From Candidatus Magasanikiibacteriota bacterium (GTDB lineage Bacteria; Patescibacteriota; Patescibacteriia; Magasanikbacterales; UBA922), in NCBI GenBank assembly GCA_003482855.1, contig DMXO01000002.1, positions 210,635-274,634 of the forward strand: 64,000 nucleotides of DNA. Reading direction: 5' to 3'. The notes below the pieces were generated by a model. That model did no database searches. It saw only the letters and a program-made list of their open reading frames with translations, and was not told where the DNA came from. Made by a program: the position numbers and the translations under genes. Position 1 is the first letter of the stretch; each line of letters starts with the position of its first letter. Of the stretch, positions 4,146-32,845 are shown piece after piece.

Positions 4146-4164
4146 AAAATCTAAAAACATAAAA

Positions 4165-10345: not shown

Positions 10346-10581
10346 TTTTTATAGTAACCCTCAACACCTTCATAAACTTTTATAAAAGTGTAGTTGGGTT
10401 GGGATTCGGCGCGCAGTCGAATCCCTTCCCTCCTTTCCGCCTCCCGAGGGAGACGATGCGCCTGGACAGTGCCGCCAGGCTCGGCGTGGTTCACTCCCCG
10501 TGATCAGCTCTGCGCGAGCCGCGGATCATCATGAACGTGAATGTTTTCGACGCGGCGGCGGAGATAGAGGGTCGAGACGAC

Positions 10582-12573: not shown

Positions 12574-12872
12574 GGGTTAACCTCCCGTGTTGCGCCGTTG
12601 CACGACCTCTCCCTCCCCAGACCTGGGGACAATGCCCTGGCTAAGGGGCGGGAGATAGAAAGCACTAGCCACTGACCTGAACAACTTTGTTATTCACTCA
12701 GTGGCTAGCACTTTCAAAAATACACTATATTGGATTGAAAGGTACTTCACCACCAAACTTATACAGTTTGATGATGACGATGCCTTTCCCCTCGTCCCCA
12801 TTCAGACACGCGCTTGGTAGCGACGCGTCCGAACAGCGGGGACGAGGGAAGGCGGAAGGACATGCGGCTCGA

Positions 12873-14147
12873 TCAGCCGCCGATGACGTCGGACCAGCCG
12901 AACCAGGTGGTGCCGCCGTTCTGCGAGCAGCCGTGGGCCGGATCGGCCTGGCACTCCGTGGCACCCACCGAGGTGGAGCCGCAGGTGACGACCTCGACCC
13001 ACATGCCGCTGGTGCAGCGGGCGAGCGAGGTGTTGCCCGTGGCCACGAAGTCGTAGCAGACCACGGCACCCTCGGTGCACTCGCTGGCCGTGACGGCCGG
13101 GGCGCAGTGCGCGAGGAGGCCCTGGTAGGGCTGGCACACGGTGCCCTCACCGCAGGGGTCGATCTCGACGCACGTGCCGTTGACCATGGTGGCCACGGTG
13201 CAGACGTTGCCGTCGGACTCGACGCACTGCGGGTCGCCCTCGATCACCTCGATGTGGTGGCAGCCGGAGGCCGCGTCGCACGTGTCGAAGGTGTCGTCGT
13301 TGGCGTCGTCGCAGGAGAGCGACGTGTTGGCGCAGTGGCCGTTGACCAGGCACTGGTCGAGCGTGCAGGCGTTGCTGTCGAAGCAGTCCTGGTTGCTCGT
13401 GCAGAGCTGGCGGCAGATGCCGACGTCGCACCACTGCGACTCGGGGTCACAGAGAGGCGCGAACTCGCACTCCTCGGTCTCCCAGTTGCACGTCGGGACG
13501 ACGCACGGGTCGGCCGACTCGCACGAGTTCAGGCACGCCGGCGGGAGCGACATGTGGCCGCAGTGGCCGGTGGCCTCGTCGCAGGAGTCCTGCGTGTTCG
13601 ACATGCCGTCGTCGCAGAACCCCACGTACACGGGGTTCCCGTTGACGTCGCAGAGGTCGGTCGTGCAGAGGCTGCCGTCGTTGGCGTCGCACACGCCGAC
13701 GTACTCCTCGACGCACACGCGCTCGCCGTTGTCGTCCGCCTTGCAGACGGACCGATAGAGCGGGTCGCTCGGGATGGGGCACGTGTAGGCGTAGCGCTTG
13801 ACGTTCCCCGTCATGTTGTCGCACACGTCGACCGTGCAGGGGTTGCCGTCATCGACGTTGGAGCACTCATGCTCCTTGATGACGCAGGCACCGAGCCAGC
13901 ACGCGAACGGCTCACCGCACTGCACCTCGTCGGTCGCGATGCACTCGCCGTTGGCGCACGTGCGGGTCTCGCAGGTGTCGGGATTCTCGGCGTAGCAGTC
14001 GGCCGACGTGAAGCACGTCAGCCCGACGTCGTCGGGGGTCGGCTCGCGCTGGACGGGCGGGGTCGTGGAGTTGTCGTCCTGGTTGAGGTACGGGTTGCCG
14101 TTGCAGGCCGCGAGGAACGCGAACACGAACAGGATGCTCTTCTTCAT
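12873..14147 (-). CDS. lipoprotein with Cys-rich repeats (paralogous architecture to 10582..12573)
   Basis: Lipobox MKKSILFVFAFLAAC. NPCTVDVCD / SLCTTDLCD / NACTLDQC repeats. SD GGAGAG upstream. Confidence 0.65.
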   Translation of the reverse strand: MKKSILFVFAFLAACNGNPYLNQDDNSTTPPVQREPTPDDVGLTCFTSADCYAENPDTCETRTCANGECIATDEVQCGEPFACWLGACVIKEHECSNVDDGNPCTVDVCDNMTGNVKRYAYTCPIPSDPLYRSVCKADDNGERVCVEEYVGVCDANDGSLCTTDLCDVNGNPVYVGFCDDGMSNTQDSCDEATGHCGHMSLPPACLNSCESADPCVVPTCNWETEECEFAPLCDPESQWCDVGICRQLCTSNQDCFDSNACTLDQCLVNGHCANTSLSCDDANDDTFDTCDAASGCHHIEVIEGDPQCVESDGNVCTVATMVNGTCVEIDPCGEGTVCQPYQGLLAHCAPAVTASECTEGAVVCYDFVATGNTSLARCTSGMWVEVVTCGSTSVGATECQADPAHGCSQNGGTTWFGWSDVIGG

Positions 14148-14224
14148 CTGGATCTCTCCGTCGGTTGGCCCGCACTCCGTGAGTCGGGCTCTGGTTCTTG
14201 TTCTCGATCTTCTTGCTTGAAGGA

Positions 14225-14833
14225 TCAGTACGCCCAGTACACTCCGGCGCCGGCTTCCTGGCGGTAGAGCGGGTCATCCCCGCCACCGAACCAGCCCGGC
14301 CCGAAAGTGTAGCGCGCCTCGAACCCGAAGTGTTCCCACGGTTGCCATCGCATGGCTACCGAGGCCACGAACGAGTTCACGACGTCGCTGTTCTGGGTCG
14401 TCGACATGCGGTCGTAGCCGATACCGGCGAGGCACTGGATCTTGTCCAGATGCGTCCGGTACGCGGCCTGGATCAGGCCCGTCATGAAGAGGGTGTCGAC
14501 GCCCTGCTCCATACCACCGGTCTCCACGCGCATGTAGCCGAAGTTCCCGAGGAACTCGAGACCGAAGTGCTGGGTCAGGGAGACCCAGCCCATGATCTGG
14601 AGCTTCGGGACTCCGGTCTGCACCTCGCCCGCGCCGCTGAAGTAACCCAGGAGGGCCACCTTGAAGCGGAACGAGTCGAGCTCGTGCGACATGGCGACCG
14701 ACTCGATCGCCGCGCGCGGGATGCGCGGGTCCGGGACCTGATACACGGTCGGCGCGGGCTGGGCCCGCACCGAGTTGGGGTTGAGGAACAGGACGAGGAA
14801 CAGGACGCTCAGGAACAGGTTCGCGCAACGCAT
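14225..14833 (-). CDS. outer-membrane beta-barrel protein (OmpA-like/OMP_b-brl), start at MRCANLFLSV...
   Basis: Signal peptide MRCANLFLSVLFLVLFLNPNSVRAQ, alternating hydrophobic beta-strand pattern, C-terminal aromatic (…GVYWAY), SD GGAGGGAG upstream. Confidence 0.55.
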   Translation of the reverse strand: MRCANLFLSVLFLVLFLNPNSVRAQPAPTVYQVPDPRIPRAAIESVAMSHELDSFRFKVALLGYFSGAGEVQTGVPKLQIMGWVSLTQHFGLEFLGNFGYMRVETGGMEQGVDTLFMTGLIQAAYRTHLDKIQCLAGIGYDRMSTTQNSDVVNSFVASVAMRWQPWEHFGFEARYTFGPGWFGGGDDPLYRQEAGAGVYWAY

Positions 14834-15059
14834 CGGACTCCCTCCGTCTGGGTGTGTTCGCAACTCGCGACTCTCGAAACGAAAGACTATAAATGTCCTT
14901 CCGCACTCCGACCCACAAGGCCGGAGATTGGAAATGTGTCTCCTAAGCACTCATACATATACAAAAAATACATTGTATATGCATACGTACTTAGGAAAAC
15001 ATTTGTAAAGAACAAAGGAATTCTTACCCTGTACCTTTATGGTACTAGGGTTATTCCCA

Positions 15060-15125
15060 TTTTCTGACAACATCTGATACAGATATTGTCACAAAGCGGG
15101 TGGGGTGGGGTATCGTCGTAAACAG
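15060..15125 (-). terminator. GC-rich hairpin (gcgggtggggtat/ataccccacccgc) downstream of 15201..16691 gene
   Basis: 13-bp stem, about 25-nt loop, followed on minus strand by TTTGTG; sits in AT-rich spacer inside island. Confidence 0.4.
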
Positions 15126-15200
15126 TCTCAAACTCATACCCCACCCGCAGATGTCCGTGGATCCTCCCGGTTCCTCGGACGTCGTGTCAAAATGCCCTGG

Positions 15201-16691
15201 TCACGGGCAGGTGGCGAGCACCCAGTTGCGGGCGTCGGCGCAGCGGCGGGGGTCGCCGTTGACCTGGCACACCATCTGGGTGTACTCGCTCTTGCCGCAC
15301 ACGATCGTGGCGGCGCCGGTCACGTCGCCCGCGAAGCACTCGACCGCCTTCGAGTCCTTCTCGATGTAGGTGCCCGAGCAGGTGCCCGAAGCGGTCGGGG
15401 CGGCGGCGCCACCAGTGGGGGCGGTCGGGGCGACGGGGGCGGTCTCGTGCACGATGCGGGTCGTGTGGCTGGTGCGGGTCACCGTGTTGTGCACGTTGAT
15501 CTCGCCCTCGGCCGTCACGTCGCCCGCCTTGACCTCACCGGCGCGCACGATGCCCGCCTTGACCTCACCGGCCTCGACCGTCTCGATCGTGACCGGGAAG
15601 GTGCGGGGCGCGGCCTCGGCGGCGAGGCGGGCGGCCTCGGCGGCGGCGGCGACCTTCTGGGAGAAAGCCGCGTCGTCACGGGCCGACTTCACGTCGTCGT
15701 TGCTCGGGTTGAGGGCCCAGAGCAGGAAGAACGTGAGGAGCGCCGCGCTCCCGATGATGCCGGCCATGATCCACCACGGCCGGCTCGCCTTCTCCGCGCG
15801 CTTGGCGTCGTCGTCGCGGACGATCGACGGGTTCAGAGCGAGGAGCTCCTTCACCGTCAGGTCGCCGACGATGGCGTTGCCGCCCGAGCGCCCACCGTTG
15901 GTGATGTTGTCGCGGAGGGCGACGAACACGGTGCGCTCCTTGGGCTCGGCGGAGACGACGGGGGCGACGACGGTCTGCGAGGGGCAGAGCTCCTTCATGA
16001 GCCGGAGGCTCGTGAGGAGGTCGTCCTTGCCCGCGGTGCGCGCGCGCTCGAGGTCCTCGGCGCTGATGGCCGGGACCGTCGTCGTGGTGTGCGCGTCGTC
16101 GTGGCCGTGGCCGTGGTGGCCGCCGTCGTTGGTCTCGCGCTGGGCGAGGACGTCGGCGACGCGCCGCTCGATCCCCTTGCGGGTGAGCGTGGTCATCGGC
16201 TTGCCGGTGCCACCGATCAGCACGAGCTGCTCGGGGTCCGACTCGTCGATGCCGAGCACGTGACCGGTGTTGATCGCGTGCTGCTCGGCGCGGGGGTTGA
16301 GCTCCGCCTGCTGGACCTGCGGACCGCCGAAGACCACGTTGGTCGTGCGGTTGCTGGCCAGGAAGGCGAGGAGGTCGCTGAGGCCGGGCTCGCTGGTGCG
16401 GGCCGAGGCCGGGCGGCGGGGCTCGTCGGTGGACGGCTGGCGGCGGGGCTCGGGCTCGCGGCGGGTGTCGGTGCGGGCCGAGGCCGGGCGGCGGGTGTCG
16501 GCGTTGCTGCCGCGGGTCCGCTCGTCCTTGCGCTTCTTGTTGCACCGCTCCTCGGTGTGCCCGGGCTTGCCGCAGTACGCGCAGGTGACCTGCTCGCGCT
16601 CGGTGGCGGGGGCCGCGTCGTCGGTGTGGGCGGCGGCGGTGTCGGTGGTGATCTCGGGGGCCTGGGTGCTGGGGTCGGTCGCGGTCGTCAT
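15201..16691 (-). CDS. membrane protein with N-terminal CCHC zinc knuckle, Arg/Pro-rich linker, single TM and repeat-containing Cys-bearing C-terminal domain
   Basis: CAYCGKPGHTEERC = CX2CX4HX4C. RRPASART duplicated. TM WWIMAGIIGSAALLTFFLLWAL. AGEVKAG x3 tandem. SD GGGAGAGAG upstream. Confidence 0.55.
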   Translation of the reverse strand: MTTATDPSTQAPEITTDTAAAHTDDAAPATEREQVTCAYCGKPGHTEERCNKKRKDERTRGSNADTRRPASARTDTRREPEPRRQPSTDEPRRPASARTSEPGLSDLLAFLASNRTTNVVFGGPQVQQAELNPRAEQHAINTGHVLGIDESDPEQLVLIGGTGKPMTTLTRKGIERRVADVLAQRETNDGGHHGHGHDDAHTTTTVPAISAEDLERARTAGKDDLLTSLRLMKELCPSQTVVAPVVSAEPKERTVFVALRDNITNGGRSGGNAIVGDLTVKELLALNPSIVRDDDAKRAEKASRPWWIMAGIIGSAALLTFFLLWALNPSNDDVKSARDDAAFSQKVAAAAEAARLAAEAAPRTFPVTIETVEAGEVKAGIVRAGEVKAGDVTAEGEINVHNTVTRTSHTTRIVHETAPVAPTAPTGGAAAPTASGTCSGTYIEKDSKAVECFAGDVTGAATIVCGKSEYTQMVCQVNGDPRRCADARNWVLATCP

Positions 16692-17063
16692 GGTACTCTC
16701 TCCCTAGTCCTGCCCCTGGTGGGGGCGCAGTGAAAGCGCGCCCCACGTTGGGGCTTTGGTAACCTACCGTAGGCCTCGCGACACACGTCGCGTGACCATA
16801 TCCGGATACTGTATATGATCATAGAGATCATAGCCTGTACCCGGATATGGTATTTTATTTTTTTGTAGCTATTTTGACACGAATTCTTGTAAAGAGCGAC
16901 ACTCACCCTATTTTAGGATGAACAGAAGATTATATCATATATTGTGTAGTTTGTCAAGAGATAAAGGCTCTATATTTTCCCTCGGGAGAACAGATATTTT
17001 TTGCTTAATATAGAGAAAAAAATGAAAAACAAAAAAGGCTTTATTGAGCCAATTTTGCTATCA

Positions 17064-17145: not shown

Positions 17146-17202
17146 TATCATAATATGCTTCGGACTACAAAAACCATACAAATTATTTTTTTCTTCTGCA
17201 CT

Positions 17203-17265
17203 GCAACTCACCCCCGTCCCCTCTCTTAGTAAGAGAGGGGTGCCCCGAGTACTCGGGGTGGGGTG
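17203..17265. repeat. nested palindromic GC hairpins (aactcacccc…ggggtgagtt enclosing cccctctctt/aagagagggg and ccccgagtactcgggg)
   Basis: Direct reading; perfect 16-bp palindrome ccccgagtactcgggg inside larger inverted repeat. Confidence 0.5.
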
Positions 17266-17284
17266 AGTTACATAAAAAAAATAT

Positions 17285-17322
17285 AACAAAAAGCTCCCCG
17301 ATGATGAGAGCTTTTTTGTACT
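17285..17322 (-). terminator. rho-independent terminator of giant ORF
   Basis: Minus strand: aaaagctctcatcatcggggagctttttgtt immediately after stop. Confidence 0.5.
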
Positions 17323-17329: not shown

Positions 17330-20300
17330 TTATCTATTTCCACCACGTGGTCCACCACCCCGAGGACCGCCGCCTCCACCACCTTTTTTACGCCCGCCTT
17401 GTCCTTGTTGTCCTCTGGCATTATCAGGTCTATTGTCAGGACGCTGACCACGATCCTGTTGTCCAGATCTATTGTCACTACCTTGTTGACCCTGACGTCT
17501 ATCATTCCCTTTCTTTTCTCTTTGTCCCCTATCTCGATTACTTTCATCTGAGCCACCACTCCTATCATTGTTTCTATCTCTACCGCCATTGCGTCGATCT
17601 CTGCCATTTGGTCGTCCACTGTCTCTATTGTTTGATCTGTTTGCAGACCCTTCGCCAGCACCAAGACCGAGATCATCACGAACCTGTTCATCGAGCAACG
17701 AAGCTACATCTATAGACATACGCGTCTGCATATCACGCGCAATATCTCGAGCTTGTGTACGAATAGCATCTGTTGCTTTGCGTAATGATCTATCACCACT
17801 CTCTTGTCCTAATCTTCGCACCAGTTCAAGTGCGGCAAGTTGTTTAGTAGCTTGTTCAAAATCTACCTTGTTTGTCTCTCCACCACGCGCTACATCTGGC
17901 ATCTCAGTACTACCAAACAATAACTCACGCGCCTGATCTCCGTTCAAAGACATCTTACTTACATCAAAAGATAGAGACCCTTTATCTTTTTTCACCCCAA
18001 TAGATCCATACGAACCAAGATTGAAATACGTAGTATCTGGATTTGCTTCAGATGTATCTGAGCCGGTGCCTTCAGCACTACCTTGTGCATGTGCCGTGTC
18101 ATCATCCATTGCTTCTACATCATCTGTCTGCTCTGCTTCATCTTGTGTTTGTGCAGGTGGTTGTGTCTCTACTACAGGAGCAGGAGTAGTACCTGCATCC
18201 ACTCTCGACGTAGAAGTTGAAGTAGTATCTCCCTCTCCAGCGGTAGGAACTTGTTCTCCTTGTCTTGCGCCCTTACGTTCGTACGCAGGACGAGGAGCAT
18301 CCTTCATACCACGAGACACATCTTCGAGTACAGGTCGTTCTCGTGTGGCAAAATATAGAGCTCCTGCTGCGAGCGCACCTCCACCAGCCACAGCATTGAG
18401 CATGGCAAGTCTACCATATGAAACATCAAACGATCGTCCATCTTCCATACCAAGTCTGACACCCTTGCCATCTGGTGTAGGCTCTGCATCTGTAGCACCA
18501 TCTACATGTATATTTGCTTCTTCGCCAGTATTGGTATTACGTACGGGTATATCTGCGCCACTACCAGTCACACGTGGATCTGCCACTGGCTCTACACGCG
18601 GTTCACGCGCGCGAGCTGCTGCCAATTCTTCAAGACGTTGCTGCGCATCTTCAGCCTGTGCTATCTGTGCCAAAGCAAGAGATTTACGATCAAGATCTCC
18701 GGTAGTAGGAGCATACTCATCAGCATCTCCTGTAGTACGCATACCACTGGCAATAAATCTATCTGGACTGCCACCGGTGCTTGTCTCGTTCATACCCATA
18801 TAGACAATTGGTCTACCTGGTTCTGCACGAAGTGGTGTCCTGCCACCTGGTTGATTATCAAACAATTTTACATTATCTGCTAAATAATCATCTCTGTTGG
18901 CATCATGCTGAAGTGCAGAACCGAGGCGTCGGATGAGATCACCACTACGACCACCTGCTGGCTGGTCAATAACCTGCGCTTTGTATTCTGCAAGGAAATC
19001 TGCAAGCGCCTTGTCTGTATCCTGCGGTATACCATCGGGAAATAATTTACCCAAAGATACACGATTGAATCCTTGACTCTGCAAAAATCTCAGTGCCTCG
19101 TCTGTATGCCCTGTCTTCATCATTTCTCCGACCATAGTGAGATCACGTTCGCGTTCAAAATGTAAAATCCATTGTGGATCACGAAACTTTGCCTCGGGGA
19201 ATAATGTATCTTCGCTACCTGTACCATGATCTGTGGCAGACTCAAGTACTGATCGCATAGCATCGGCATTGCCAAGACTCGGGTACGCGGTAACCCACGC
19301 ATCCATTTCTTTTGCTGCCGCAGGTGATAAATGAAATTCTTTTATGATATCGAGACGATCTATATCCCAACGAGCTGACTCGGGCACTGGCGGTACTTCT
19401 ATTGTCTCTGCTCGCGGAGTGGGCTCTCCTGATGGTGGTGCATCTACATCTCTGCCTCCATGTGCACCCACATCTGGTGATGTGTCGTGTGCATGATCTG
19501 CTACTTGAGCGCCTGTACCCGCTGCTGTTCCTGTTTCTTCTGGGATTCTTATGCCTAATTTTTCAAATGCCCATGCTCCAATGTCTTTGCTAAAATAGCC
19601 AAGACCAGCACCAATTACGCCACCGACAACCATACCTTTGAGAGCTCCTGCATGGCGTTTGATGAAGCCACCCTTATCTTTTAATTTATCAATAGTCTGT
19701 TGGCGTTCTGATTTGAGCAAGCTCACATCTGTATCAAGCTCTGCTAAAAGTGCTTCTGCTCCTGCATGTCTCAGGCGTTTGTCGTATGTCTCATATTCAA
19801 TACTGCGCAATACGTTACGTGCGCGCACTCGCAATAGTTCGCTATTGTTCAATAGACCAAGAGACATGGCAACACGAATATCTTTTGCGAGTTTCTGAAG
19901 ACCGGTATCACTTAGGCTTTCAGTCTTCTTGCTATCTATGCCAAGCGTAGACAATGCAAGCTCTGCTTCATCTATACGTCTCTCTACCTCTGTACGCATC
20001 TCTTCTTCACGTGCTCTAATATCTTTCATATTGCCCAGATGCGTTCCCAAATATGCACCCGCAAGTCCAAGCACTGCAGCGCGTACTTCTGGTGCAAAAC
20101 TTGATGCGACACCTATGGCTCCACCAGCAATAGCGCCCATTACTTTTTTGGCTAATTCATTTTGATCAAGTACCTCGCCATCGGCTTTGAATAATGATTG
20201 TACATCGCCACGCTTCAAAGCCATAGCTTTTTGTAATACGCGCATCATGCCAGGATTCTCACGAATGATATCTGCGACTGCGTCTACTGTCTGGCCACTA

Positions 20301-23300
20301 TACAACTCTGAAACCAAATGATCGAGACGAGCGTCCTGAGCTTCTTCGCGGGATATCTCTCCACGCGCAGCTCGAGTACGTGCATCGAGCGCTATTTCAC
20401 GACGCCCAGCTTGCAAAAGCAATATTGCCTGCGCGCGTATAGTATCATCATCCACTACTTCTGCACCAAGTCGAGCCTCATCGCGAGTAACTGCAGAAGA
20501 TGCATCTGTGCGACTCACACGATATGAAGCAGTGATGAGACCATCACTCATAAATACCGCAAGACGATCTATAAGTGTCTTGTCTCCACCTTGTGGAGTT
20601 CCATCAGCCCCTTTTGCCAGACCAAATCTTTGCATAAGTCTCTGACGAAATTCTGGCGTATTTCTAAATGTTTGTAATATTTCATCTTCTTTTTGTTTAA
20701 TTTTTTCTTCCACGTCTTGAGTACGATTGAGTGTGCGTTCACGTCCCGCTTTGGTGCTTCGCTCTGCTGCATACCAACCACCAATAGCTCCAGCTATGCC
20801 ACGCACTACCATCGCAGGAGCTTTGGCAACCGTGCCTGCAAGAGACGCGAGTCCGACTACAACAGCAGCAGGACCTACCGTGACTAAAGCATTTTTGGCT
20901 TTCTCCCACACTTTGGTCATGCCACCATGATAAAACTTTTTCATGTCTTGAAGTACATTGGTTTCTTCGCTCGCGACAAACAAACGGATACCATACATAG
21001 TCTCACGGTATCCTTGTTGCTTTTCCCAAAAACCAAGAAAATCTTCTGCATCTGTATACCCAGCACGACGAGCCTCTTCGCGGAGACGGCGTTCATCCAC
21101 ACCTTCTTGTCTAAATATATGTGTAATGTATTCTTCTACATCGCCTGCTGCAGTAGGATCTGTCATGAGATGCAATAATTTCGTGTATCTCTCACGGCCA
21201 ATTATTTCAATCAACACATGTGGGCGTATGTCTACTATGCCATGCTCAAACTCTTCGACAGTCCCCTCTGGCATATTGTTCAATCTGCGATGCAAATCTT
21301 CGGCTGCATTGTATTTGTCTGCAGCACTACTCCATACCGTACCGTCAGGAGTAACTTCAAACGTTTCTCCGTGGGATATATGCGCACGCATCACCTGTTG
21401 TCTATCTATGACTGAGTCAGTATAGAGCGGTTTGAGACCGCGCGCCTGCAGTTGATCCGGGCTTTCGATGCAAAAACGTTTGATACCAAACAGATGCTCA
21501 TCTGGCGATATAATGACGCACATACCTTGGTTACGCGCTTCTGCACATAGGGCGGATAACCTTCCAACGACTGTGGTGTCCAATGGTGCATCTGCGCTAC
21601 CAAAATTGCCCACGTCAAACCCAAACACGGAAGATAATACAGATGCACCTACACCTGGAGGCATACCATATTCACGCGCTAGGCGTGCCATCGTAGCTTC
21701 TGGCGTTTCAACAGCTGTCTCTGCCGAAGCACTATCTGACACTGCAGTACTTTCTCCTGTTGTCTCTTCAATATCAGGAAGTTCTATTCTCGGATGTGGT
21801 TTGCCTACTTCAGAAGATTTGGAAACCAAACCTCTCAAACGCTGGCCTATAGATTTTTTGCGTACAGCAAAATTGTATGGATCATCTGATACGAATTCAT
21901 ATCCTTTCGCAGGATAATACGTATTGTTACCATCTTCATCACGTGCCGCGTATACTCTTCCTGTATCCAATGCATATGAAAGATCAACAAAAGGAATATC
22001 TTCTTCTTCAGCACGTTTTATTGAATCTATTTGTTCTGAATTCAACAAATTTTGCATCATATCTTCAAACCACCAATCAGGATCTTCTGCTCCATCCAAT
22101 GATGATACATGGATCCTCGAAACATCCGGATGTTGTTCACGAGTATGTCTAAACTGCGCCAATAATCTGCGCATTTCTTCACGGCGCTCTGATGGTATAT
22201 ATGGCCTTCCATGCCAATCACGCCCTTCGTCATCCATGAGACTCACACACGCAAACATAGCATCAGCAAGACGTCCGAGTTCTTGCGCAGGATTCTCCTG
22301 CTCATGTGCTTCTACGTCAGCACCCTGCTCTGCTGGTGATTGTTCACTAGCCTGCACCACATCACGCACAGCAATTCTTCTATCGGACAAGACTACTACC
22401 TCTTTGCCTTGTGACCTCATTATATCTATATACTGCTGTACAACTTCGGCAGAAAACTCTGCAGGGATATCATTGATTTCAAATCCCAAAGTGCGCAATT
22501 CTTCTGGAGACATACTTTCCAAAGGGATATCTACATCGTAAACTCTTGAAGAATCCGCGGATGCAGAATCTGCAGAAGCGTCAGCATGACTTGCTTCATC
22601 CTCACGAGCTGTATCACCCTCTCCCTCACCATGCAGAGCTGGAAAATTATCACCGGATAATGCTTCATCACCTGTTCGTCGCGCAGGAAGATTATCCCTG
22701 CCATCAGGGATAGCTGGCAGATGATCTGACGGCAAAACATCCTCTGGAGCTTCGGCACTAGACTGTGTAGCTTTCACAGCAGAGGGACCAAATACTGATT
22801 CGGGATTACCACCAAGCACACGAACTAATTCGCGACTCGAGTCTTTGATAGTAGGATCAATATATAATGCAGTACCCCTCATTTCATGTTGTCCATTTGG
22901 TGATATATGTATTTCAGTAATATATCTATCATGTTCACCAATAGAACGATGTATAATACCTAGTAACCTCTGCGCATACTCAGGGCTCAACATGCCTTTT
23001 GGTTTGGTAAATTCACCCCAAGACTCCCTCAACCTGCCCCAATTTTTTGCAAATGTGTTTATTCTAAAACGAGGATCTATTTTCTGAAGTTCTTTTTCTG
23101 CAGGACCCAAAATATCCAACAATGCTTTTTCTACACCTACTGGTTCTTCGGGATTGGTAGATCGACCTGCGTTCGGGTCTGCCTGTTCTCCACCCGGAAC
23201 TGAAGCCTTTTCTTTTCTGCGTCTTTTTATTTTTTCTGATTCACCTTTTTTGGTTGCATCTGATGACTCAGTAATTTTTACTACTTCTATAGATAAATTA

Positions 23301-24931
23301 TCTGCAGAACCTGCTTTCCATTTTTTCTTTTTCATGAATTGTCCTGGTGCATACTCAATATCAAATGGACCGTCAGCATTGCCACGCGCAAATGTCTCTT
23401 TCCATAAACGTTCTTGGACTTTACGCGCATCACCACCCTCTTCTGCTGTCCATTTCTCTACTTCATATTCAGATACAATGTCCCACAAACCATCTGACCC
23501 GAGCACTATAATATCTCCATCTTGACCTTGAAATTCAATTTGTTCTGGACCTTGCTCATGTATATCTGCTGTACCATGTCCGAGTGAACGAGAAATAATG
23601 TGATCAATAGGACTATTGAATATCTGCCCTGTTTCGTATCCTTCACGTATGGTTTCAAAAAAAGCGCGTAATTCCTCGTCATCTCCCACTGCTCTTCTAT
23701 GTCCCATATAAAATATGCGGGCCCAATGATCCTGCGTATCTTCTTTACTCAAATCAAGAAGATCCGGATTTTCGCGCATCTGGGCCACGACTTCTACCGC
23801 AAAATTATGCATCTTTGTCGTGCCCTCTTCTAACTTTTTGCCACCACGCACCGTCATTGCTTTTGAATCTCCTATATATGCAAGTTGAACTTTCCTATCT
23901 CTATCTATGCGAGCGATAACTGCTGCGGTGTTGCCATTTGATAATTCATTCTCAATCCTCGCATGACCATCAATCATTGCCTCCCTCAAATCTGTCTCTC
24001 CAGCTCTTATCATACCTACCACTGCCTCATTGACAAGACGACTTGCCTGGCGTCCGTTGCCCATACCACCCGCACCATCGATAACACCTGTCACGAGAGC
24101 GCCATCAGGTCCGACCACGGTGAGTATGCTATCTTCATTTTTTGTTTCAATAAAATTTTCAGGAGTCCGTATTTTCTTGTTTGCAGCATCTCTATTATAC
24201 TCTGTATATTTGGAAAATGGTCCTCCATAATGTGAACGCCCGTCTACAACCGCCTGCTCAGTGACGATATGTATGTCTGTCTTATTTTCTTTATTATCTG
24301 GATCTGTTACAAATCTATCTTCAAACATAATTTGACGTGATTCTCCAGGTTTGAGCAACTCACGTGATTCTATGCGTACTTTTTCAGGAGTTAATTCACC
24401 CAAAGGCAAGTAATTGATTTCTGTGGAACCTAATATCCCCAAGGATAATAATCCCTTCTCTGTATCTGGTATTTCTTTTACTATATATTTCCTCACACTA
24501 CCATCAGAATCTGTATACTCAATTACATCCCCCACACTCAGACTTCCAGCAGGTGTTTCTATTTTTCCTTCACCGATTCCAATACCCCGGACCAAAGCCT
24601 CTGCAACATCCCCAATTTCACCATCTGTTAAAGTTGGTTTCTGTAATAATACTGCCAATTTCTCTTCAGCCGCGTGCAATTTTCGACTAAACTGATCAAG
24701 ATGTATTTGTAATTCGTCTGCATGACTCATTCTTTGTGGTATTTCACCCAAAGACTGCACGAGTTCATCTCTCTCTTGCTGTAAATCCTCAATCTGGTGA
24801 CCGAGTGCCTGTATCCGTGCTTCAAAATCACGATGGGCTTCGTGAGCTTCTTCTCGGTTACCAAAGGATTTTCTCATTTCTTTTCTTTTGACTCCATCTG
24901 GTGCTTGCTTTGGTGATGTTTCTTCTGGCAT
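17330..24931 (-). CDS. giant (2533 aa) multidomain protein: N-terminal coiled coil, PP2C-family Ser/Thr phosphatase domain, acidic linkers, several Gly-zipper hydrophobic segments, C-terminal RGG/RD-rich low-complexity tail
   Basis: PP2C motifs VIDGAGGMGNG and IIVLGSDGLWDIVSE. Tail ...GGRKKGGGGGGPRGGGPRGGNR. Uninterrupted 7.6-kb ORF. Confidence 0.8.
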   Translation of the reverse strand: MPEETSPKQAPDGVKRKEMRKSFGNREEAHEAHRDFEARIQALGHQIEDLQQERDELVQSLGEIPQRMSHADELQIHLDQFSRKLHAAEEKLAVLLQKPTLTDGEIGDVAEALVRGIGIGEGKIETPAGSLSVGDVIEYTDSDGSVRKYIVKEIPDTEKGLLSLGILGSTEINYLPLGELTPEKVRIESRELLKPGESRQIMFEDRFVTDPDNKENKTDIHIVTEQAVVDGRSHYGGPFSKYTEYNRDAANKKIRTPENFIETKNEDSILTVVGPDGALVTGVIDGAGGMGNGRQASRLVNEAVVGMIRAGETDLREAMIDGHARIENELSNGNTAAVIARIDRDRKVQLAYIGDSKAMTVRGGKKLEEGTTKMHNFAVEVVAQMRENPDLLDLSKEDTQDHWARIFYMGHRRAVGDDEELRAFFETIREGYETGQIFNSPIDHIISRSLGHGTADIHEQGPEQIEFQGQDGDIIVLGSDGLWDIVSEYEVEKWTAEEGGDARKVQERLWKETFARGNADGPFDIEYAPGQFMKKKKWKAGSADNLSIEVVKITESSDATKKGESEKIKRRRKEKASVPGGEQADPNAGRSTNPEEPVGVEKALLDILGPAEKELQKIDPRFRINTFAKNWGRLRESWGEFTKPKGMLSPEYAQRLLGIIHRSIGEHDRYITEIHISPNGQHEMRGTALYIDPTIKDSSRELVRVLGGNPESVFGPSAVKATQSSAEAPEDVLPSDHLPAIPDGRDNLPARRTGDEALSGDNFPALHGEGEGDTAREDEASHADASADSASADSSRVYDVDIPLESMSPEELRTLGFEINDIPAEFSAEVVQQYIDIMRSQGKEVVVLSDRRIAVRDVVQASEQSPAEQGADVEAHEQENPAQELGRLADAMFACVSLMDDEGRDWHGRPYIPSERREEMRRLLAQFRHTREQHPDVSRIHVSSLDGAEDPDWWFEDMMQNLLNSEQIDSIKRAEEEDIPFVDLSYALDTGRVYAARDEDGNNTYYPAKGYEFVSDDPYNFAVRKKSIGQRLRGLVSKSSEVGKPHPRIELPDIEETTGESTAVSDSASAETAVETPEATMARLAREYGMPPGVGASVLSSVFGFDVGNFGSADAPLDTTVVGRLSALCAEARNQGMCVIISPDEHLFGIKRFCIESPDQLQARGLKPLYTDSVIDRQQVMRAHISHGETFEVTPDGTVWSSAADKYNAAEDLHRRLNNMPEGTVEEFEHGIVDIRPHVLIEIIGRERYTKLLHLMTDPTAAGDVEEYITHIFRQEGVDERRLREEARRAGYTDAEDFLGFWEKQQGYRETMYGIRLFVASEETNVLQDMKKFYHGGMTKVWEKAKNALVTVGPAAVVVGLASLAGTVAKAPAMVVRGIAGAIGGWYAAERSTKAGRERTLNRTQDVEEKIKQKEDEILQTFRNTPEFRQRLMQRFGLAKGADGTPQGGDKTLIDRLAVFMSDGLITASYRVSRTDASSAVTRDEARLGAEVVDDDTIRAQAILLLQAGRREIALDARTRAARGEISREEAQDARLDHLVSELYSGQTVDAVADIIRENPGMMRVLQKAMALKRGDVQSLFKADGEVLDQNELAKKVMGAIAGGAIGVASSFAPEVRAAVLGLAGAYLGTHLGNMKDIRAREEEMRTEVERRIDEAELALSTLGIDSKKTESLSDTGLQKLAKDIRVAMSLGLLNNSELLRVRARNVLRSIEYETYDKRLRHAGAEALLAELDTDVSLLKSERQQTIDKLKDKGGFIKRHAGALKGMVVGGVIGAGLGYFSKDIGAWAFEKLGIRIPEETGTAAGTGAQVADHAHDTSPDVGAHGGRDVDAPPSGEPTPRAETIEVPPVPESARWDIDRLDIIKEFHLSPAAAKEMDAWVTAYPSLGNADAMRSVLESATDHGTGSEDTLFPEAKFRDPQWILHFERERDLTMVGEMMKTGHTDEALRFLQSQGFNRVSLGKLFPDGIPQDTDKALADFLAEYKAQVIDQPAGGRSGDLIRRLGSALQHDANRDDYLADNVKLFDNQPGGRTPLRAEPGRPIVYMGMNETSTGGSPDRFIASGMRTTGDADEYAPTTGDLDRKSLALAQIAQAEDAQQRLEELAAARAREPRVEPVADPRVTGSGADIPVRNTNTGEEANIHVDGATDAEPTPDGKGVRLGMEDGRSFDVSYGRLAMLNAVAGGGALAAGALYFATRERPVLEDVSRGMKDAPRPAYERKGARQGEQVPTAGEGDTTSTSTSRVDAGTTPAPVVETQPPAQTQDEAEQTDDVEAMDDDTAHAQGSAEGTGSDTSEANPDTTYFNLGSYGSIGVKKDKGSLSFDVSKMSLNGDQARELLFGSTEMPDVARGGETNKVDFEQATKQLAALELVRRLGQESGDRSLRKATDAIRTQARDIARDMQTRMSIDVASLLDEQVRDDLGLGAGEGSANRSNNRDSGRPNGRDRRNGGRDRNNDRSGGSDESNRDRGQREKKGNDRRQGQQGSDNRSGQQDRGQRPDNRPDNARGQQGQGGRKKGGGGGGPRGGGPRGGNR

Positions 24932-24942: not shown

Positions 24943-25149
24943 TTAGTGGTGAGGTAAATCAATGATATTTTGTAAAACGTCAGAAATTTTGTGCTGATCA
25001 AGCGCACCCAAAATACGGACTTTCAACATACGTCCCTCTTGTTGTAACGCGCGGACATCCTTTTCCAATTCACTGCATAGATAGACCAAATCATTCTCTG
25101 ATGCTGACGTAATCTCGTGTTGTCCAGATTGTATAGGACTGACAGGCAT
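24943..25149 (-). CDS. hypothetical small protein (68 aa), immediately upstream of giant ORF
   Basis: ORF only; same strand, 12-nt gap to giant gene. Confidence 0.35.
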   Translation of the reverse strand: MPVSPIQSGQHEITSASENDLVYLCSELEKDVRALQQEGRMLKVRILGALDQHKISDVLQNIIDLPHH

Positions 25150-25157: not shown

Positions 25158-25493
25158 TTAGGCTGTCTTGGATAAAATTGCACTTACCTTTTCTCCAAAC
25201 GCAATAATTATTTTTTTCAAATCTTCTTCAAATGTAGGAATAGAAGCATACCAAAAATCACGCCACTGCTCTCCTGTGGTATTTTCACTTTCTGCAAATT
25301 TGGCAAATTGCGTGAGTTGTGGCTTGGATAATTTTGGTAACATTTCAAGCCCAATACGTTCTTCGAGACGAGCAAGTACCTGGGGCACGTAAATACGTCG
25401 TTGTTCATCAGTCAATGTACTCAGCCCATTTTCATATAATAATTTTTCGACATACGCTGACAAGAAATCAAATTGGTGTGTGTCTTGAGTCAT
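25158..25493 (-). CDS. hypothetical protein (111 aa)
   Basis: ORF with plausible composition; co-directional array. Confidence 0.45.
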   Translation of the reverse strand: MTQDTHQFDFLSAYVEKLLYENGLSTLTDEQRRIYVPQVLARLEERIGLEMLPKLSKPQLTQFAKFAESENTTGEQWRDFWYASIPTFEEDLKKIIIAFGEKVSAILSKTA

Positions 25494-25508: not shown

Positions 25509-26111
25509 TTAATTCTTTTTTAAAATCATAAGACCAGAAAGCAACACTCCCACAATAAATCCAAGCACTGCATTTAAAACTACATTTGGTCGCACGGGAA
25601 ATCGCGTAACGATTGGTTCATTCACCACCTTGATGGTGACATCACCACCAACATATTCCCAACCTTTGGACGAAAGTGCATTTACTGCAGCTCCCGCAAG
25701 CATCTTGGCCTGTTCTGCATCAGGATGATATGCACTCACATTCAATACTCCAGTCCCATACACCACAGAAGGATTCATGGATTTTTGCCATAATTTTCTT
25801 TTCTCACGTTCATTTTTATTGTCAAAATATGACCAATCAATGGCAAACTCGGGTTGTGCTTTCACTTTGTTATAAAAGTCATTGGTCCTCATGACCTGGG
25901 CTATATTTTCACCCACGCGTTCGGCAGAACGTACAACCGTATACGGATCTACGCCGTATCGAGACTGAGAAATAATGAGCACCTGAGCATCAGCACGATA
26001 ACTCAATGGGAACAGCGCGGTGGCAATACCTGACAACGCGCCACATATAATAGCTATAACAAGGATGACTTTCCAACGCTTCTGAAGAAGATGGAGGGGA
26101 GAGGTGAACAT
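25509..26111 (-). CDS. Wzz/chain-length-determinant-like bitopic membrane protein
   Basis: N- and C-terminal TM helices flanking about 150-aa periplasmic region, as in Wzz/YveK-family proteins. Confidence 0.45.
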   Translation of the reverse strand: MFTSPLHLLQKRWKVILVIAIICGALSGIATALFPLSYRADAQVLIISQSRYGVDPYTVVRSAERVGENIAQVMRTNDFYNKVKAQPEFAIDWSYFDNKNEREKRKLWQKSMNPSVVYGTGVLNVSAYHPDAEQAKMLAGAAVNALSSKGWEYVGGDVTIKVVNEPIVTRFPVRPNVVLNAVLGFIVGVLLSGLMILKKN

Positions 26112-26273
26112 AGTAAAATGTTTAATTTAAAATTTTAAATTTAAAAATTTTGAATTGTCCTAGACCCAGACCTAAAGGGTTCTCAAATTCGAAATTTTAA
26201 ATTCAAAATTAACAAATGAATATACCACAAAATCCCTCTTTTGTCAATCTATACAGCAAAAAAATTAGTTCTT

Positions 26274-27359
26274 TTACTTGTGCATTAGTATATCAGATTC
26301 TTTGCCTTTACGCCACACAGTCACGCCAAATTCATCGGGAGCAGTGTATAATTGCCGGTGCAAAGTCTCGGGAGCCACCGTATCATTTTGCACACGAATA
26401 ATTATATCTCCTGGCATGAGACCTCGTGGCAAAGCACCCACGCTTGAAATATAAAAACCTGAAGCCGGCACATCATCGTCCCCTTCTTCACTACTACGAT
26501 ATACAAAATATCCATTCCATGTAATAGCAAAATCATCGAGTGCATCATTTCCCAATACAAAAGGCAATTGATATTCTATACTCCATCCTGTATGCAATTC
26601 ATCATTGTCATCAACAAAACCAACAAATTGACCTTGACCAGTCATTGCTATCCCCTGCTTTGAAACAGTAGGATCTACATAAAAGCGCGTATACGCATCG
26701 AGCGCATTGTATGCACCACTAGATACTGCGTTGCGAGCACCCAATATGCGGTGATGCCATGAACCGCCATGATCTGACCATACATCGAGACCTGTATCAA
26801 CATCAGTCCAATTCACAAAAGGCAATACATGAAATTCATTTCCTATACATTTGATATATACATACCCCGAGCGTGCGTCTACAAGAACCTTTTCTATTGC
26901 ATAAGAAATACCTCTATAATCTACTGCTTCAAGTTTGGGTATAAGTGATTGATTGAAATCGGGCATATACGATACTCCCCACCCATTCGAGCTCAACATC
27001 ACTGCTTGCCCCACACGCGCATTATCTGCATAAAAATCTCCTGACAATTTTTGCGTCTTGTCAAATAATCTCATCGTACCCATCTGATACCGTTGTATCA
27101 CAAGTACATCGGGTCGCTCGGTAGAGCCATACAATTGTGATGAACGATTAACAAAATATAATCCCGCTGAATCAGAATAAAATGTAGGATTGATCCATGC
27201 GGTCACGACAAGCGCCCCTGTAATCCCCGCGAATACTGACAGCACAACCAAAATAACAATGGCAGATATACGAATCCATAATTCACGCGCATTACGAGAA
27301 CATGTTTTGTTTGGAAGATGAGGAGGGAGCATATAATAAATTTCAAATTTTAAATCCAC
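26274..27359 (-). CDS. membrane-anchored secreted protein with C-terminal PDZ-like segment
   Basis: N-terminal TM. C-term GLMPGDIIIRVQNDTV resembles PDZ GD(I/V)I motif; otherwise uncharacterised. Confidence 0.4.
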   Translation of the reverse strand: MDLKFEIYYMLPPHLPNKTCSRNARELWIRISAIVILVVLSVFAGITGALVVTAWINPTFYSDSAGLYFVNRSSQLYGSTERPDVLVIQRYQMGTMRLFDKTQKLSGDFYADNARVGQAVMLSSNGWGVSYMPDFNQSLIPKLEAVDYRGISYAIEKVLVDARSGYVYIKCIGNEFHVLPFVNWTDVDTGLDVWSDHGGSWHHRILGARNAVSSGAYNALDAYTRFYVDPTVSKQGIAMTGQGQFVGFVDDNDELHTGWSIEYQLPFVLGNDALDDFAITWNGYFVYRSSEEGDDDVPASGFYISSVGALPRGLMPGDIIIRVQNDTVAPETLHRQLYTAPDEFGVTVWRKGKESDILMHK

Positions 27360-28114
27360 TTAATGACATACAGTACGACAAAGAACAAGAAAGCATTTAC
27401 TCCCAAAAACCACTTTTGTCGTTTCCACAAAATACCAGTAAGGCTCAAATGAAAACGGACAAATAACTGTACAATATACCACAACCACACGAGCAAAAAA
27501 GCAGAAGCAAAATAACCAAAGGGCAGTAGTTTCATCACCCACATGATCTCTACGATGCTCAATAAAACAAGTATACACCACACGACAAGCTGTTCAAATG
27601 TAAACTTGAAATACAAACTCCAAATCATATAGGCGCCGGTAGCAGCATATACACCTCCGATGATACTCAGTAAAGCAAATGAAAGCTGATTAAAATATAT
27701 ATGCACCGCAAACAAAGCTACAAACAATGCATACACATTGAACACATAGAGCATCATCATCATGCGACGAAGAGGCTTCTCTTTGATATGGATGGCATGC
27801 TCTATACGTGGTTCAGACCAATACGCAATAAAGAAAAAAATAAACACAGATGCGCCGACGAGAAACCATCTCATATACAGAGATTCAATAAGCAATAATA
27901 ATATAATAAAAGAAACTGCGGTCATACTATTGAGAGCAGTCTGGTGTTTCTCGACATGGTACTTCACATGCAATAACACAAAAAAAGAAAACCACACAAC
28001 ACATGATATGATAAATACGTATGTATGGGGAAATACATGGATCGCCAATAATACACTCGGTGCTACCAGTGTTGAGACAATACGTATCCACCATGGACGT
28101 TGTTCATCTGCCAT
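27350..28114 (-). CDS. polytopic (about 8 TM) membrane protein, unknown function
   Basis: Hydrophobicity pattern only. Confidence 0.45.
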   Translation of the reverse strand: MADEQRPWWIRIVSTLVAPSVLLAIHVFPHTYVFIISCVVWFSFFVLLHVKYHVEKHQTALNSMTAVSFIILLLLIESLYMRWFLVGASVFIFFFIAYWSEPRIEHAIHIKEKPLRRMMMMLYVFNVYALFVALFAVHIYFNQLSFALLSIIGGVYAATGAYMIWSLYFKFTFEQLVVWCILVLLSIVEIMWVMKLLPFGYFASAFLLVWLWYIVQLFVRFHLSLTGILWKRQKWFLGVNAFLFFVVLYVIKWI

Positions 28115-28116: not shown

Positions 28117-28593
28117 CTAATTGGCTATAAGTGATTGTATAAGTGATACAACAGAATCTCGCATCTCAGCAGGAGACTGTTGCGTCTGTGCGCGCAATCG
28201 CGTCACACTCAAAACTACATTGAGATGTTTCTCTTGCATATCTTTTGGCACACGCACAGCAAGCAATGTATCCTCTACTGATGCAAGGATATTATCAATT
28301 GATTGTGAACTCTGCGTAGTATCTGAGACAATACGCGATATGCTTTCTCTATACTGTGTAACAAGTTCTTCGGACGTTGCTTGGGTATTTTGATTATCCT
28401 CGGCTTGAATATCTTGGCCAATATCGACAGATGGTGCTTGACTATCCGGTGCCACGTCTCTTTGTCTATCATGAGAAAAGAGCATCGTCACCAATATACC
28501 CACTGAAATAATAATACCAAGAGCAACAGCACCAAATACAAAAAATAACAAAAATGAAGACTGTTTTTTGTGTATAAACATATAATAATGCAA
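28117..28593 (-). CDS. membrane-anchored hypothetical protein
   Basis: Single N-terminal TM (FLLFFVFGAVALGIIISVGILV) then polar domain. Confidence 0.4.
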   Translation of the reverse strand: MHYYMFIHKKQSSFLLFFVFGAVALGIIISVGILVTMLFSHDRQRDVAPDSQAPSVDIGQDIQAEDNQNTQATSEELVTQYRESISRIVSDTTQSSQSIDNILASVEDTLLAVRVPKDMQEKHLNVVLSVTRLRAQTQQSPAEMRDSVVSLIQSLIAN

Positions 28594-29404: not shown

Positions 29405-29795
29405 GGGGATGACAGGGTTCGATAGGTGGACCTATGTTATCTACTATATGCATGTCGAGGTGGTATACGATCCTCGTAAAACCCGTATACAATTCTCAAG
29501 TGCAAACTTGGTAAGTCGAGTGAAAAACGCAGTAGCGCAAGCTTTCCGCGTCCCAACATTCGCATCTGTAGTGGCCTAATAGGCCTGCTACCATCATTCC
29601 CATGATACTCGGTAATGGATGAATGGTGTCAACCTATCGAGTGTAGGATATATGTGCTTTCTGTCGCATATACTCGAAATAAATACAGGATCAGTTGATT
29701 GCTATTTTGCTGATTTCTAAGCAATCAATAAAACACCAAACCAGCTATACATGTAGATTGTGGTGGTAACCCATCTAGACCCGGGTTCAATTCCC
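29405..29795 (+). ncRNA. ssrA: tmRNA (ssrA)
   Basis: 5' GGGGATGACAGGGTTCGATAGG. 3' T-arm ccggg-ttcaatt-cccgg then acceptor catctcc pairing with 5' ggggatg incl. G3.U wobble. Internal ORF ending in stop inside ggcctaataggcc hairpin. CCA not encoded (..tccaCGA). Confidence 0.7.
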
Positions 29796-29934
29796 GGCAT
29801 CTCCACGAAAAGCGGTGCAACCGCTTTGAGTGACGCGTGATGAGCGAAGCGAATTTTACGCGTCACAACCAATAACTGCTTTTTCAACGGCACCGCCTCG
29901 TGGCGATGCCATAGTAAAATTAGCAAGGAGGATT

Positions 29935-30198
29935 ATGTATTACGTTGTTTATTTTTTAGAATCTACAAAATATCCACAACGTCATTATATAGGTTACACG
30001 ACAAATTTAAAGAATAGGATTCAATACCACAATAAAGGATTAGTTACATCGACAAAAAATTTCAAACCATGGAAAATAATATATGCTGAGATGTATCTGA
30101 ATAAAAAAGATGCAATGGGAAGAGAGAAATTTTTGAAAAGTGGATCCGGATGGAAATTTCTAAAAAAACAATTGACACATTATTTTCAAAATAAATAA
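29935..30198 (+). CDS. GIY-YIG nuclease-family protein (small, about 87 aa)
   Basis: YYVVYFLES...YIGYTTNLKNRIQYHNKG GIY-YIG motif; perfect SD aaggagg 5 nt upstream of ATG 29935 (listed ORF start 29830 is upstream extension). Confidence 0.7.
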   Translation: MYYVVYFLESTKYPQRHYIGYTTNLKNRIQYHNKGLVTSTKNFKPWKIIYAEMYLNKKDAMGREKFLKSGSGWKFLKKQLTHYFQNK

Positions 30199-32654: not shown

Positions 32655-32845
32655 AATATCTAAGTCTTCTAAGCTCTCTAAGCTTTCTCAGTTCTTCTGA
32701 GATTAGCATAGTGCTTAGTATAAAAAAACTGTGGTTGTAAACCACAGACACTCTGTAACCCTCGACCTTTTTGTCTAGCTAAAATAATTTAGAAAACCTA
32801 GATAGCTTAGACGACTTAGAGGTTACCTCGGCAGGAAATTGAGTC
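32655..32845 (-). promoter_or_regulatory. putative rplJ 5' leader (L10-leader-like) containing 9-mer tandem repeats and GNRA-type hairpin
   Basis: tctaagtcttctaagctctctaagctttctcag tandem units; perfect hairpin ctgtggtt-gtaa-accacag; position upstream of rplJ. Confidence 0.35.

Follow-up and report, generated by a model that had tools for sequence, protein, structure and literature searches.

A giant PP2C-domain protein from a Candidatus Magasanikbacteria genome and the core family to which it belongs

Bacterial PP2C phosphatases of the Stp1, PstP and PrpC type are enzymes of 230–500 residues that are soluble or cross the membrane once, while SpoIIE of sporulating Firmicutes is a large multi-domain protein with an N-terminal multi-pass transmembrane (TM) region, a central regulatory domain and a C-terminal PP2C domain. 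In the CpsB/CpsC/CpsD system of capsule regulation in Gram-positives, CpsC, a PCP2b adaptor with two TM helices, is paired with a phosphatase of the PHP or LMW-PTP type and with a bacterial tyrosine kinase (BY-kinase). Among the domains listed for giant-gene products in Omnitrophota and elsewhere in bacteria (bioRxiv 10.1101/2023.11.21.568195) are Ser/Thr phosphatases. Here we describe a 2533-amino-acid (aa) protein, hereafter the giant, encoded on contig DMXO01000002.1 of a Candidatus Magasanikbacteria genome (candidate phyla radiation (CPR)/Patescibacteria). The window analysed comprises 64,000 nt of this contig, and all coordinates below refer to it, with the strand in brackets. The giant is best filed as a membrane-tethered PP2C protein built on an undescribed, CPR-specific core.

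Over aa ~255–556 the giant resembles Stp1, PstP and PrpC in profile matches and in the ED, DGxGG, GDS(K/R), DGLWD and DN motifs, but its PP2C domain forms part of a far longer polypeptide with six predicted TM helices. As in SpoIIE, the phosphatase is tethered to a multi-pass membrane region within a large multi-domain protein. The order of the domains is reversed, however, so the giant is not a SpoIIE-type protein; outside PP2C the two have no sequence similarity, and they differ in lineage, partners and core. The likeness to CpsB/CpsC/CpsD lies only in the pairing of a CpsC-like two-TM protein with a phosphatase, in a neighbourhood that includes Wzy_C-like and glycosyltransferase genes. No BY-kinase or Walker A motif was found in the giant or its cluster (nor a Walker A motif in most of its relatives), the CpsC-like protein ends directly after its second TM helix without the kinase-activating tail, and the phosphatase belongs to a different class. 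The Omnitrophota-type giants are likewise very large and multi-domain, but they are much larger still, come from other phyla and are linked to predation and cell-wall degradation, and homologue and profile searches detected no homology between them and the giant.

The giant gene and its PP2C domain

The giant open reading frame (ORF; 17330..24931 (−)) runs from an ATG to its stop codon without interruption and encodes a protein of 277 kDa with an isoelectric point (pI) of 5.0. Chance cannot account for 2533 codons without a stop at 45% GC, and self-BLAST of the protein found no internal repeats. The exact protein exists in the public record as ‘hypothetical protein DCS29_01080’ of a Candidatus Magasanikbacteria metagenome-assembled genome (MAG). 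The metagenomic origin of this genome and the long low-complexity linkers of the ORF could point to an assembly artefact, or to fused pseudogenes read as one frame. However, the identical 2533-aa protein is carried by 11 contigs from the ENA (SRR2177986 and SRR2177953), JGI (sample 3300009031) and Logan (SRR2177986 and SRR5855242) collections, that is, from three runs, one JGI sample and several assemblers, and a 2940-aa homologue from a Parcubacteria MAG (P0002) is collinear with it across 91% of its length at 42% identity. These two observations make an assembly fusion very unlikely. In addition, the core of the protein is common to ~27 further proteins, many of which have the same layout of N-terminal region, core and C-terminal region. 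A native GC3, a terminator directly past the stop codon and gaps of 8–15 nt to the three upstream genes also support a real gene. We therefore regard an artefact as barely credible, and conclude that the giant ORF represents a single authentic gene in a Candidatus Magasanikbacteria genome. An earlier annotation made without database searches, hereafter the sequence-only reading, had called it a single uninterrupted frame, as is confirmed here by the ORF itself, the 11 identical contigs and the collinear homologue; the homologous giant genes that it proposed looking for exist as P0002 and the core family described below.

That reading had also put the gene at about 48% GC, above its neighbours. 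The excess is real, although the figure is 45.3%, in a window of ~39% GC. By codon position, GC1/GC2/GC3 of the giant are 0.62/0.44/0.29 against host means of 0.50/0.35/0.33. Since GC3 lies at or below the host mean and the excess is confined to the first and second codon positions, the elevated GC is a product of a composition rich in Gly, Ala, Asp, Glu and Arg and not of foreign DNA; codon usage is native.

The N-terminal coiled coil (aa 15–98; 24638..24889 (−)) was correctly recognised beforehand and matches coiled-coil families only (KIF21A_4th at 4.3e-6, ZapB and Seryl_tRNA_N). It is followed by the PP2C (PPM) domain at aa ~255–556 (23264..24169 (−)), which rests on both profile matches and motifs. 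The match to Pfam PF00481 falls just above the cut-off (21.8 versus 20.3 bits), the NCBIfam Stp1 model matches at 1.8e-11, and a profile built from five sequences of the subfamily matches solved Stp1, PstP and plant PP2C structures at 5e-15. The characteristic motifs occur at aa 265–267 (NED), 285–289 (DGAGG), 354–357 (GDSK), 480–484 (DGLWD) and 544–545 (DN), and all four metal-binding aspartates (D267, D285, D480 and D544) are retained and do not vary across the five-sequence alignment. The domain thus passes the significance check by hidden Markov model proposed for it, and the two motifs on which it was first recognised, DGAGGMGNG and VLGSDGLWD, occupy aa 285–293 and 476–484. Judged by its sequence, it belongs to the PPM family proper. 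Relative to stand-alone relatives it carries two insertions, one of 19 aa before NED and one of ~45 aa in the flap region, and it belongs to a small subfamily with the conserved motifs YGG..SKY and WD(I/V)(V/A)SEYE. A scan of genomes for PP2C relatives returned two more, both stand-alone PP2Cs. The domain makes up 12% of the protein, and the acidic region that follows (aa 557–1224; 21260..23263 (−)) has no Pfam match and is common only to P0002.

The conserved core, its payloads and its membrane segments

The part of the giant that defines a family lies further towards the C-terminus. This core (aa 1225–1800, ~560 aa; 19532..21259 (−)) is all-helical, with two hydrophobic hairpins and one TM helix, and an alignment of 19 sequences gives the motifs I(I/V)DI.., FGY..EF..W, NP, G..G, LAGxYLG, LR..L.LGLL and RA.NVLR.I. 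An exhaustive search with a profile of aa 1030–2195 retrieved 27 further proteins of 439–3100 aa, all aligned to aa ~1230–1860 and, among the matches listed, 22 at E ≤ 1e-10. Other searches returned less: a word-indexed search with the whole giant found only 2 relatives, the same search yielded no match when run with the core alignment of 19 sequences (low-complexity words probably swamped it), and a metagenome scan for the core added a single new locus. In none of the 29 proteins is the core covered by a Pfam family, and the core profile has no significant match among PDB sequences. The named members come from MAGs of Magasanikbacteria, Kaiserbacteria or Parcubacteria and are all entered as ‘hypothetical protein’. 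No paper on the family was found, and the CPR genome papers and the Omnitrophota giant-gene work that were checked do not cover it. This core family of ~30 large CPR proteins is, then, previously undescribed and without a name.

What precedes the core varies from 23 to 1973 aa across the family. A PP2C domain occurs in 2 members, a WipA_Phos domain (3e-16) in 2 others, and no payload was detected in most. The sequence-only reading had made PP2C the core of the giant, but in the light of the family the phosphatase is an optional module, N-terminal to a conserved core that itself has no annotation. Because most members have no recognisable phosphatase, dephosphorylation cannot be the core activity of the family; at the same time, the presence of two unrelated phosphatase folds on the same core argues that dephosphorylation is functionally tied to the complex. 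A further protein, P0003 (1598 aa; locus L002, gene 2099–6895 of a contig from Logan SRR22388196), has only PP2C in common with the giant and, by eye, apparent SH3-like repeats in its N-terminal part. The core was not detected in P0003, nor in any ORF near P0003 or near the stand-alone PP2C relatives. P0003 is still preceded by genes for a DUF5663 protein and a ~63-aa protein, and the gene after it, which runs off the end of the contig, has no similarity to the giant.

Hydropathy places the hydrophobic, Gly/Ala-rich segments of the giant at aa 1346–1392, 1596–1636, 1761–1783 and 2175–2195, in agreement with the at least four glycine-zipper segments proposed at the outset, three of the four having GxxxGxxxG zippers proper. 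The first two segments appear to be hairpins, flanked on both sides by Lys/Arg-rich stretches: hairpin 1 (20756..20896 (−)), with a Kyte–Doolittle (KD) value of 1.95, and hairpin 2 (20024..20146 (−)), with two zippers (G1599/1603/1607 and G1625/1629/1633). The third, TM helix 5 (19583..19651 (−)), has a GxxxGxxxGxxxG run (G1762/1766/1770/1774) and lies between a basic stretch on its N-terminal side and acidic sequence on its C-terminal side. The fourth, TM helix 6 (18347..18409 (−)), is followed by an Arg/Lys-rich stretch and is also present in P0024. The zipper helices are the most conserved feature of the core family: across the 19 aligned core sequences G1603, G1766 and G1770 are invariant, and G1625, G1629 and G1633 are at least 90% conserved. 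As expected of transmembrane glycine zippers, the GxxxGxxxG motifs lie in hydrophobic helices and are kept among homologues. An amyloid-like nature, offered earlier as an alternative to membrane segments, finds no support, as the hydropathy and flanking charges are typical of TM helices and the Gly positions of these segments are the most conserved in the family. Taken together, we infer that the giant is a six-helix membrane protein.

Between TM helices 5 and 6 lies domain D (aa 1835–2080; 18692..19429 (−)), a helical domain predicted to be extracellular, which occurs in 7 other family members and whose profile has no significant match among PDB sequences. In the C-terminal region an acidic linker rich in Ser and Thr leads to a small domain and then to a basic tail (aa 2396–2533; 17333..17746 (−)) that is rich in Arg, Gly, Asp and Asn (22% Gly, 19% Arg, pI 11.3) and ends in GGRKKGGGGGGPRGGGPRGGNR. 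The tail holds two RGG triplets and several RG/GR pairs, so that the R/G-rich composition noted earlier stands. The likeness to a eukaryote-style RGG box is one of composition; homology to eukaryotic RGG-box proteins was not found, and the corresponding tails of relatives are Lys-rich or Arg-rich instead.

The upstream cluster and the possible functions of the giant

The giant follows a co-directional series of genes that includes, as had been noted, a Wzz-like gene, two small ORFs and genes for membrane proteins. The first gene of the array encodes a 158-aa protein (28117..28593 (−)) with one N-terminal TM helix, an acidic tail and faint FliL/RodZ-like matches; it is followed by a gene for a 254-aa polytopic membrane protein (27350..28114 (−)), which has no family match and is kept in 4 loci. 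The third product, of 361 aa (26274..27359 (−)), is a membrane-anchored HtrA/DegQ-like protein with a C-terminal PDZ domain (profile versus DegQ, 2.3e-12). The position of its catalytic serine (GNSGG motif) is occupied by lysine here and is variable among orthologues, and this lack of conservation indicates that the protein is probably a pseudoprotease and not an active protease. Together with its orthologues (L001, L011–L014 and L016) it has an invariant PHLP..C motif before its N-terminal TM helix, presumably on the cytoplasmic side. A promoter-like site with a TG extension (26219..26247 (−), 11 of 12 consensus positions) stands ahead of the next gene, for a short Wzz/CpsC-like protein of 200 aa (25509..26111 (−)) with TM helices at both ends (aa ~14–34 and ~175–197). 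This protein matches PF02706 at 26.1 bits (cut-off 25.5) and TIGR01006, the CpsC family, over its full length at 5e-8, although its 32.6 bits are so far below the TIGR01006 cut-off of 296 that it is not an equivalog. A 111-aa DUF5663 protein (25158..25493 (−)) and a 68-aa ORF (24943..25149 (−)), which ends 11 nt upstream of the giant, complete the series. The terminator-like hairpin mentioned above (17288..17316 (−); 11-bp stem and T run) lies 14 nt past the stop codon of the giant, and a stable, GC-rich branched hairpin at 17200–17270 (−) directly follows it (141 nt, −66 kcal/mol, z = −8); the latter may be a second terminator, a repetitive extragenic palindromic (REP)-like element or a small RNA.

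This arrangement recurs in other genomes. In each of the eight loci for which upstream sequence exists, all from different genomes (the window, L001, L002, L011, L012, L013, L014 and L016), the large gene comes after a DUF5663 gene (~105–112 aa), and in seven of the eight an ORF of 59–68 aa lies between the two; the name DUF5663 was not found in the literature searched. Where enough upstream sequence exists, the wider order is a ~255-aa polytopic membrane protein, a ~350–362-aa HtrA/PDZ-like protein, a ~185–204-aa Wzz-like protein, DUF5663, the ~65-aa protein and the giant, and inspection of ORFs reveals the same layout in a ninth locus, L019. In three loci (the window, L001 and L014) the cluster adjoins the genes for SmpB, IF3, L35 and L20. 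The recurrence of this housekeeping neighbourhood in distant genomes points to an old, vertically inherited locus, and the conserved synteny fits the general suggestion of an envelope-associated system made in the sequence-only reading. The conserved chromosomal position by translation genes, along with native codon usage, also bears on whether the giant might be a mobile-element or defence gene, for example a phage tape-measure-like or anti-phage component. Its large size, helical content and hydrophobic Gly-rich segments do recall tape-measure proteins, and the PP2C region has one sub-threshold PADLOC match (PDC-M21C, E 0.0026). However, PADLOC returned nothing for the cluster partners and no system-like arrangement, none of the seven cluster proteins matched a PHROG family (E ≤ 0.01), and neither an integrase nor structural phage genes were found nearby, so that we consider an origin of this kind highly improbable.

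The interpretation that we favour, and hold with roughly even confidence, is that the giant acts in the membrane as the scaffold or transducer of an envelope complex specific to CPR, to which the phosphatase adds a means of regulation. Hydropathy together with the positive-inside rule predicts that PP2C and the rest of the first ~1340 aa are cytoplasmic and that the core is anchored in the membrane by the two hairpins and the fifth helix. An acidic ectodomain of ~390 residues, comprising domain D and the stretch after it, would face outwards, and helix 6 would bring the acidic-then-basic tail back into the cytoplasm. Through its glycine zippers the core may oligomerise or pack with partner membrane proteins, and could in this way serve as scaffold or transducer of a CPR-specific assembly complex of the envelope or cell surface. 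The N-terminal payload would be exchangeable: the giant has PP2C, two relatives have a WipA-like phosphatase, and in most members none is detected. In the giant, PP2C would dephosphorylate Ser/Thr residues on substrates bound locally and thereby couple cytoplasmic phospho-signalling to the envelope machinery.

Several observations weigh against this interpretation. The hydrophobic segments are moderately hydrophobic (KD 1.2–1.95) and receive AlphaFold confidence values (pLDDT) below 50, their membrane insertion and topology being inferred only; the CpsC-like assignment lies far under the NCBIfam cut-off; only a minority of the family have a recognisable phosphatase; neither the cluster nor the 64-kb window as a whole yielded a kinase, an FHA domain or an obvious substrate; and every named family member is annotated as hypothetical.

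The same membrane segments could instead belong to a host-directed effector or pore former that, as a whole or by its core, is delivered to the membrane of the CPR cell’s host or inserted in it, with the zippers forming an oligomeric channel and the phosphatase acting on host proteins. GxxxGxxxG zippers typify channel-forming helices, the hydrophobic hairpins are bilobed, neighbouring genes encode Cys-rich secreted proteins, and two relatives match the Pfam family of WipA-like phosphatases, WipA being a Legionella effector phosphatase. Conversely, no N-terminal signal peptide was seen on reading the giant and no secretion ATPase was found in the cluster, the distribution of charges fits a resident inner-membrane topology, minimal family members carry no payload, and the location of the cluster by SmpB, IF3, L35 and L20 in distant genomes suggests vertical inheritance. 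An effector role is on this evidence unlikely.

The membrane anchoring of PP2C would also suit a scaffold for division or morphogenesis resembling SpoIIE, in which a phosphatase placed at a polar or division site governs a developmental or cell-cycle switch that has nothing to do with polysaccharide or surface assembly. The long coiled-coil and acidic linkers resemble those of polar or division organisers, the best single-sequence PDB match, a weak one, is 3rnr (‘Stage II sporulation E family protein’, E 0.026), and the first gene of the array has the faint FliL/RodZ-like matches noted above. Against this, PP2C lies N-terminal to the TM region, opposite to its place in SpoIIE; no TM or regulatory domain of SpoIIE type was detected; the conserved partners are CpsC-like and HtrA/PDZ-like and not division proteins; and the phosphatase is missing from most members. 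We therefore doubt such a role, to about the same degree as that of an effector.

The interest of the giant lies partly in its lineage, as CPR bacteria (Patescibacteria) account for much of bacterial diversity and little is known of the biology of their envelopes and host contacts. What was an isolated hypothetical giant can now be defined as a family, through the alignment of its core, an operon that is diagnostic for it and a modular payload logic in which different members carry phosphatases of two unrelated folds on the same core. Handles for experiments are also gained, namely the activity of PP2C, the topology of the giant and its co-purification with partners of the CpsC-like and HtrA-like kinds.

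The GC-rich downstream module and other features of the window

The giant had been taken for the last gene of its co-directional array. This is not so: after its terminator and a consensus promoter, four more genes follow on the same strand (10582..16691 (−)). They occupy a block of 60–74% GC (10.5–16.9 kb; 10531–16900) in a genome of ~39% GC, and their GC3 is 0.85–0.98 versus 0.29 for the giant. The promoter (16929..16957 (−)), in AT-rich DNA ahead of the block, is a perfect sigma-70 consensus (TTGACA, 17 nt, TG-TATAAT; 12 of 12 positions). Past it runs a leader of ~230 nt (16692–16928 (−)) with a 26-nt inverted repeat at 16795–16851 and no Rfam family at gathering score. The first gene encodes a 496-aa protein with a CCHC-type zinc knuckle, one TM helix and a Cys-rich C-terminus (15201–16691 (−)), for which neither phage records nor the word-indexed protein database yielded a homologue. 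It is followed by genes for a 241-aa signal-peptide protein (14225–14950 (−)) and for two Cys-rich lipoproteins of 424 aa (12873–14147 (−)) and 663 aa (10582–12573 (−)) with Dicty_CTDC repeats (PF00526; 55.9 and 41.6 bits versus a cut-off of 27). The two lipoproteins resemble large, Cys-rich extracellular proteins of Peregrinibacteria, also CPR, for which a role in attachment and variability among strains have been proposed (PMC4736985); the giant core family, the synteny of the cluster and the GC3 anomaly do not feature in that work. In the public record the genes of the block are called antisense (10531–12675 (+), 12687–14267 (+) and 15105–16733 (+)), as ORFs of 714, 498/526 and 542 aa that are rich in Ala, Arg, Gly and Val with GC1 of ~0.9–0.96, and which also occur in L003–L005, L017 and L018. 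As these calls are on the wrong strand, the real proteins of the block are missing from protein databases.

A rise in GC3 past the giant was seen in all five of the other loci examined. It is strong in L011 (giant 0.37, downstream genes 0.84–0.94), L013 (0.38 and 0.78–0.84), L016 (0.56 and 0.75–0.94) and L019 (0.45 and 0.90–0.94), and weaker in L014 (0.25 and 0.38–0.61). By inspection the downstream genes are of like types across loci, and BLAST ties the Cys-rich proteins of the window to L016 and L013. A chimeric assembly was rejected as the source of the block: both junctions are assembled, that on the Wzy_C side in a second run as well, and a 210-aa protein of the block occurs only in this CPR context. 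A single recent transfer still awaiting compositional drift is likewise unlikely, as the pattern recurs after the giant in six loci and in deeply diverged genomes. The GC3 anomaly could stem from a recombination hot spot with biased gene conversion, from repeated exchange of the cassette or from selection at synonymous sites. Separately, the two independent contigs of L006 and L007 each stop exactly at the edge of the block (window ~16690–16900), which suggests a drop in coverage from GC bias, or strain heterogeneity.

We also advance, tentatively and with rather more doubt than belief, a wider proposal, in which the giant core with its exchangeable payloads and its cluster partners (the CpsC-like protein, the pseudo-HtrA/PDZ protein, the polytopic membrane protein, DUF5663 and the ~65-aa protein) would form an undescribed envelope machine specific to one CPR lineage, with the giant as its signature component, coupled both physically and functionally to the downstream cassette of secreted, Cys-rich surface proteins at extreme GC3. 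Were this true, the GC3 of the cassette (up to 0.98 versus ~0.33 for the genome), kept high in deeply diverged genomes, would imply a new mechanism or selective pressure, for which a hot spot of recombination or gene conversion, repeated cassette exchange or control of translation rate would be candidates. The syntenic, GC3-anomalous cassette is in any case both an evolutionary puzzle and, through the wrong-strand public gene calls, a practical warning.

The remainder of the window includes housekeeping genes for SmpB, transfer-messenger RNA (tmRNA), IF3, L20, L35, L10/L12, DnaE and PheST. Between the tmRNA gene (29405–29808) and infC (30204–30752) lies a 122-aa ORF of GIY-YIG/T5orf172 type (29830–30198 (+)), labelled from the Pfam annotation of the public gene call at the same locus, which may be a homing-endonuclease-like insertion. 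Genes for de novo NAD synthesis, a pathway unusual for a small CPR genome, were also observed (35103–39005 (+) and 47772–49226 (−)), encoding NadA fused to a cytidylyltransferase-like domain, NadC and NadB; a phosphoenolpyruvate carboxylase of the PEPcase_2 family (PF14010) was noted with them in the same intervals. Upstream of L10/L12 there is a ribosomal protein L10 leader (RF00557, 55.9 bits; 32714–32885 (−)), an ordinary feature.

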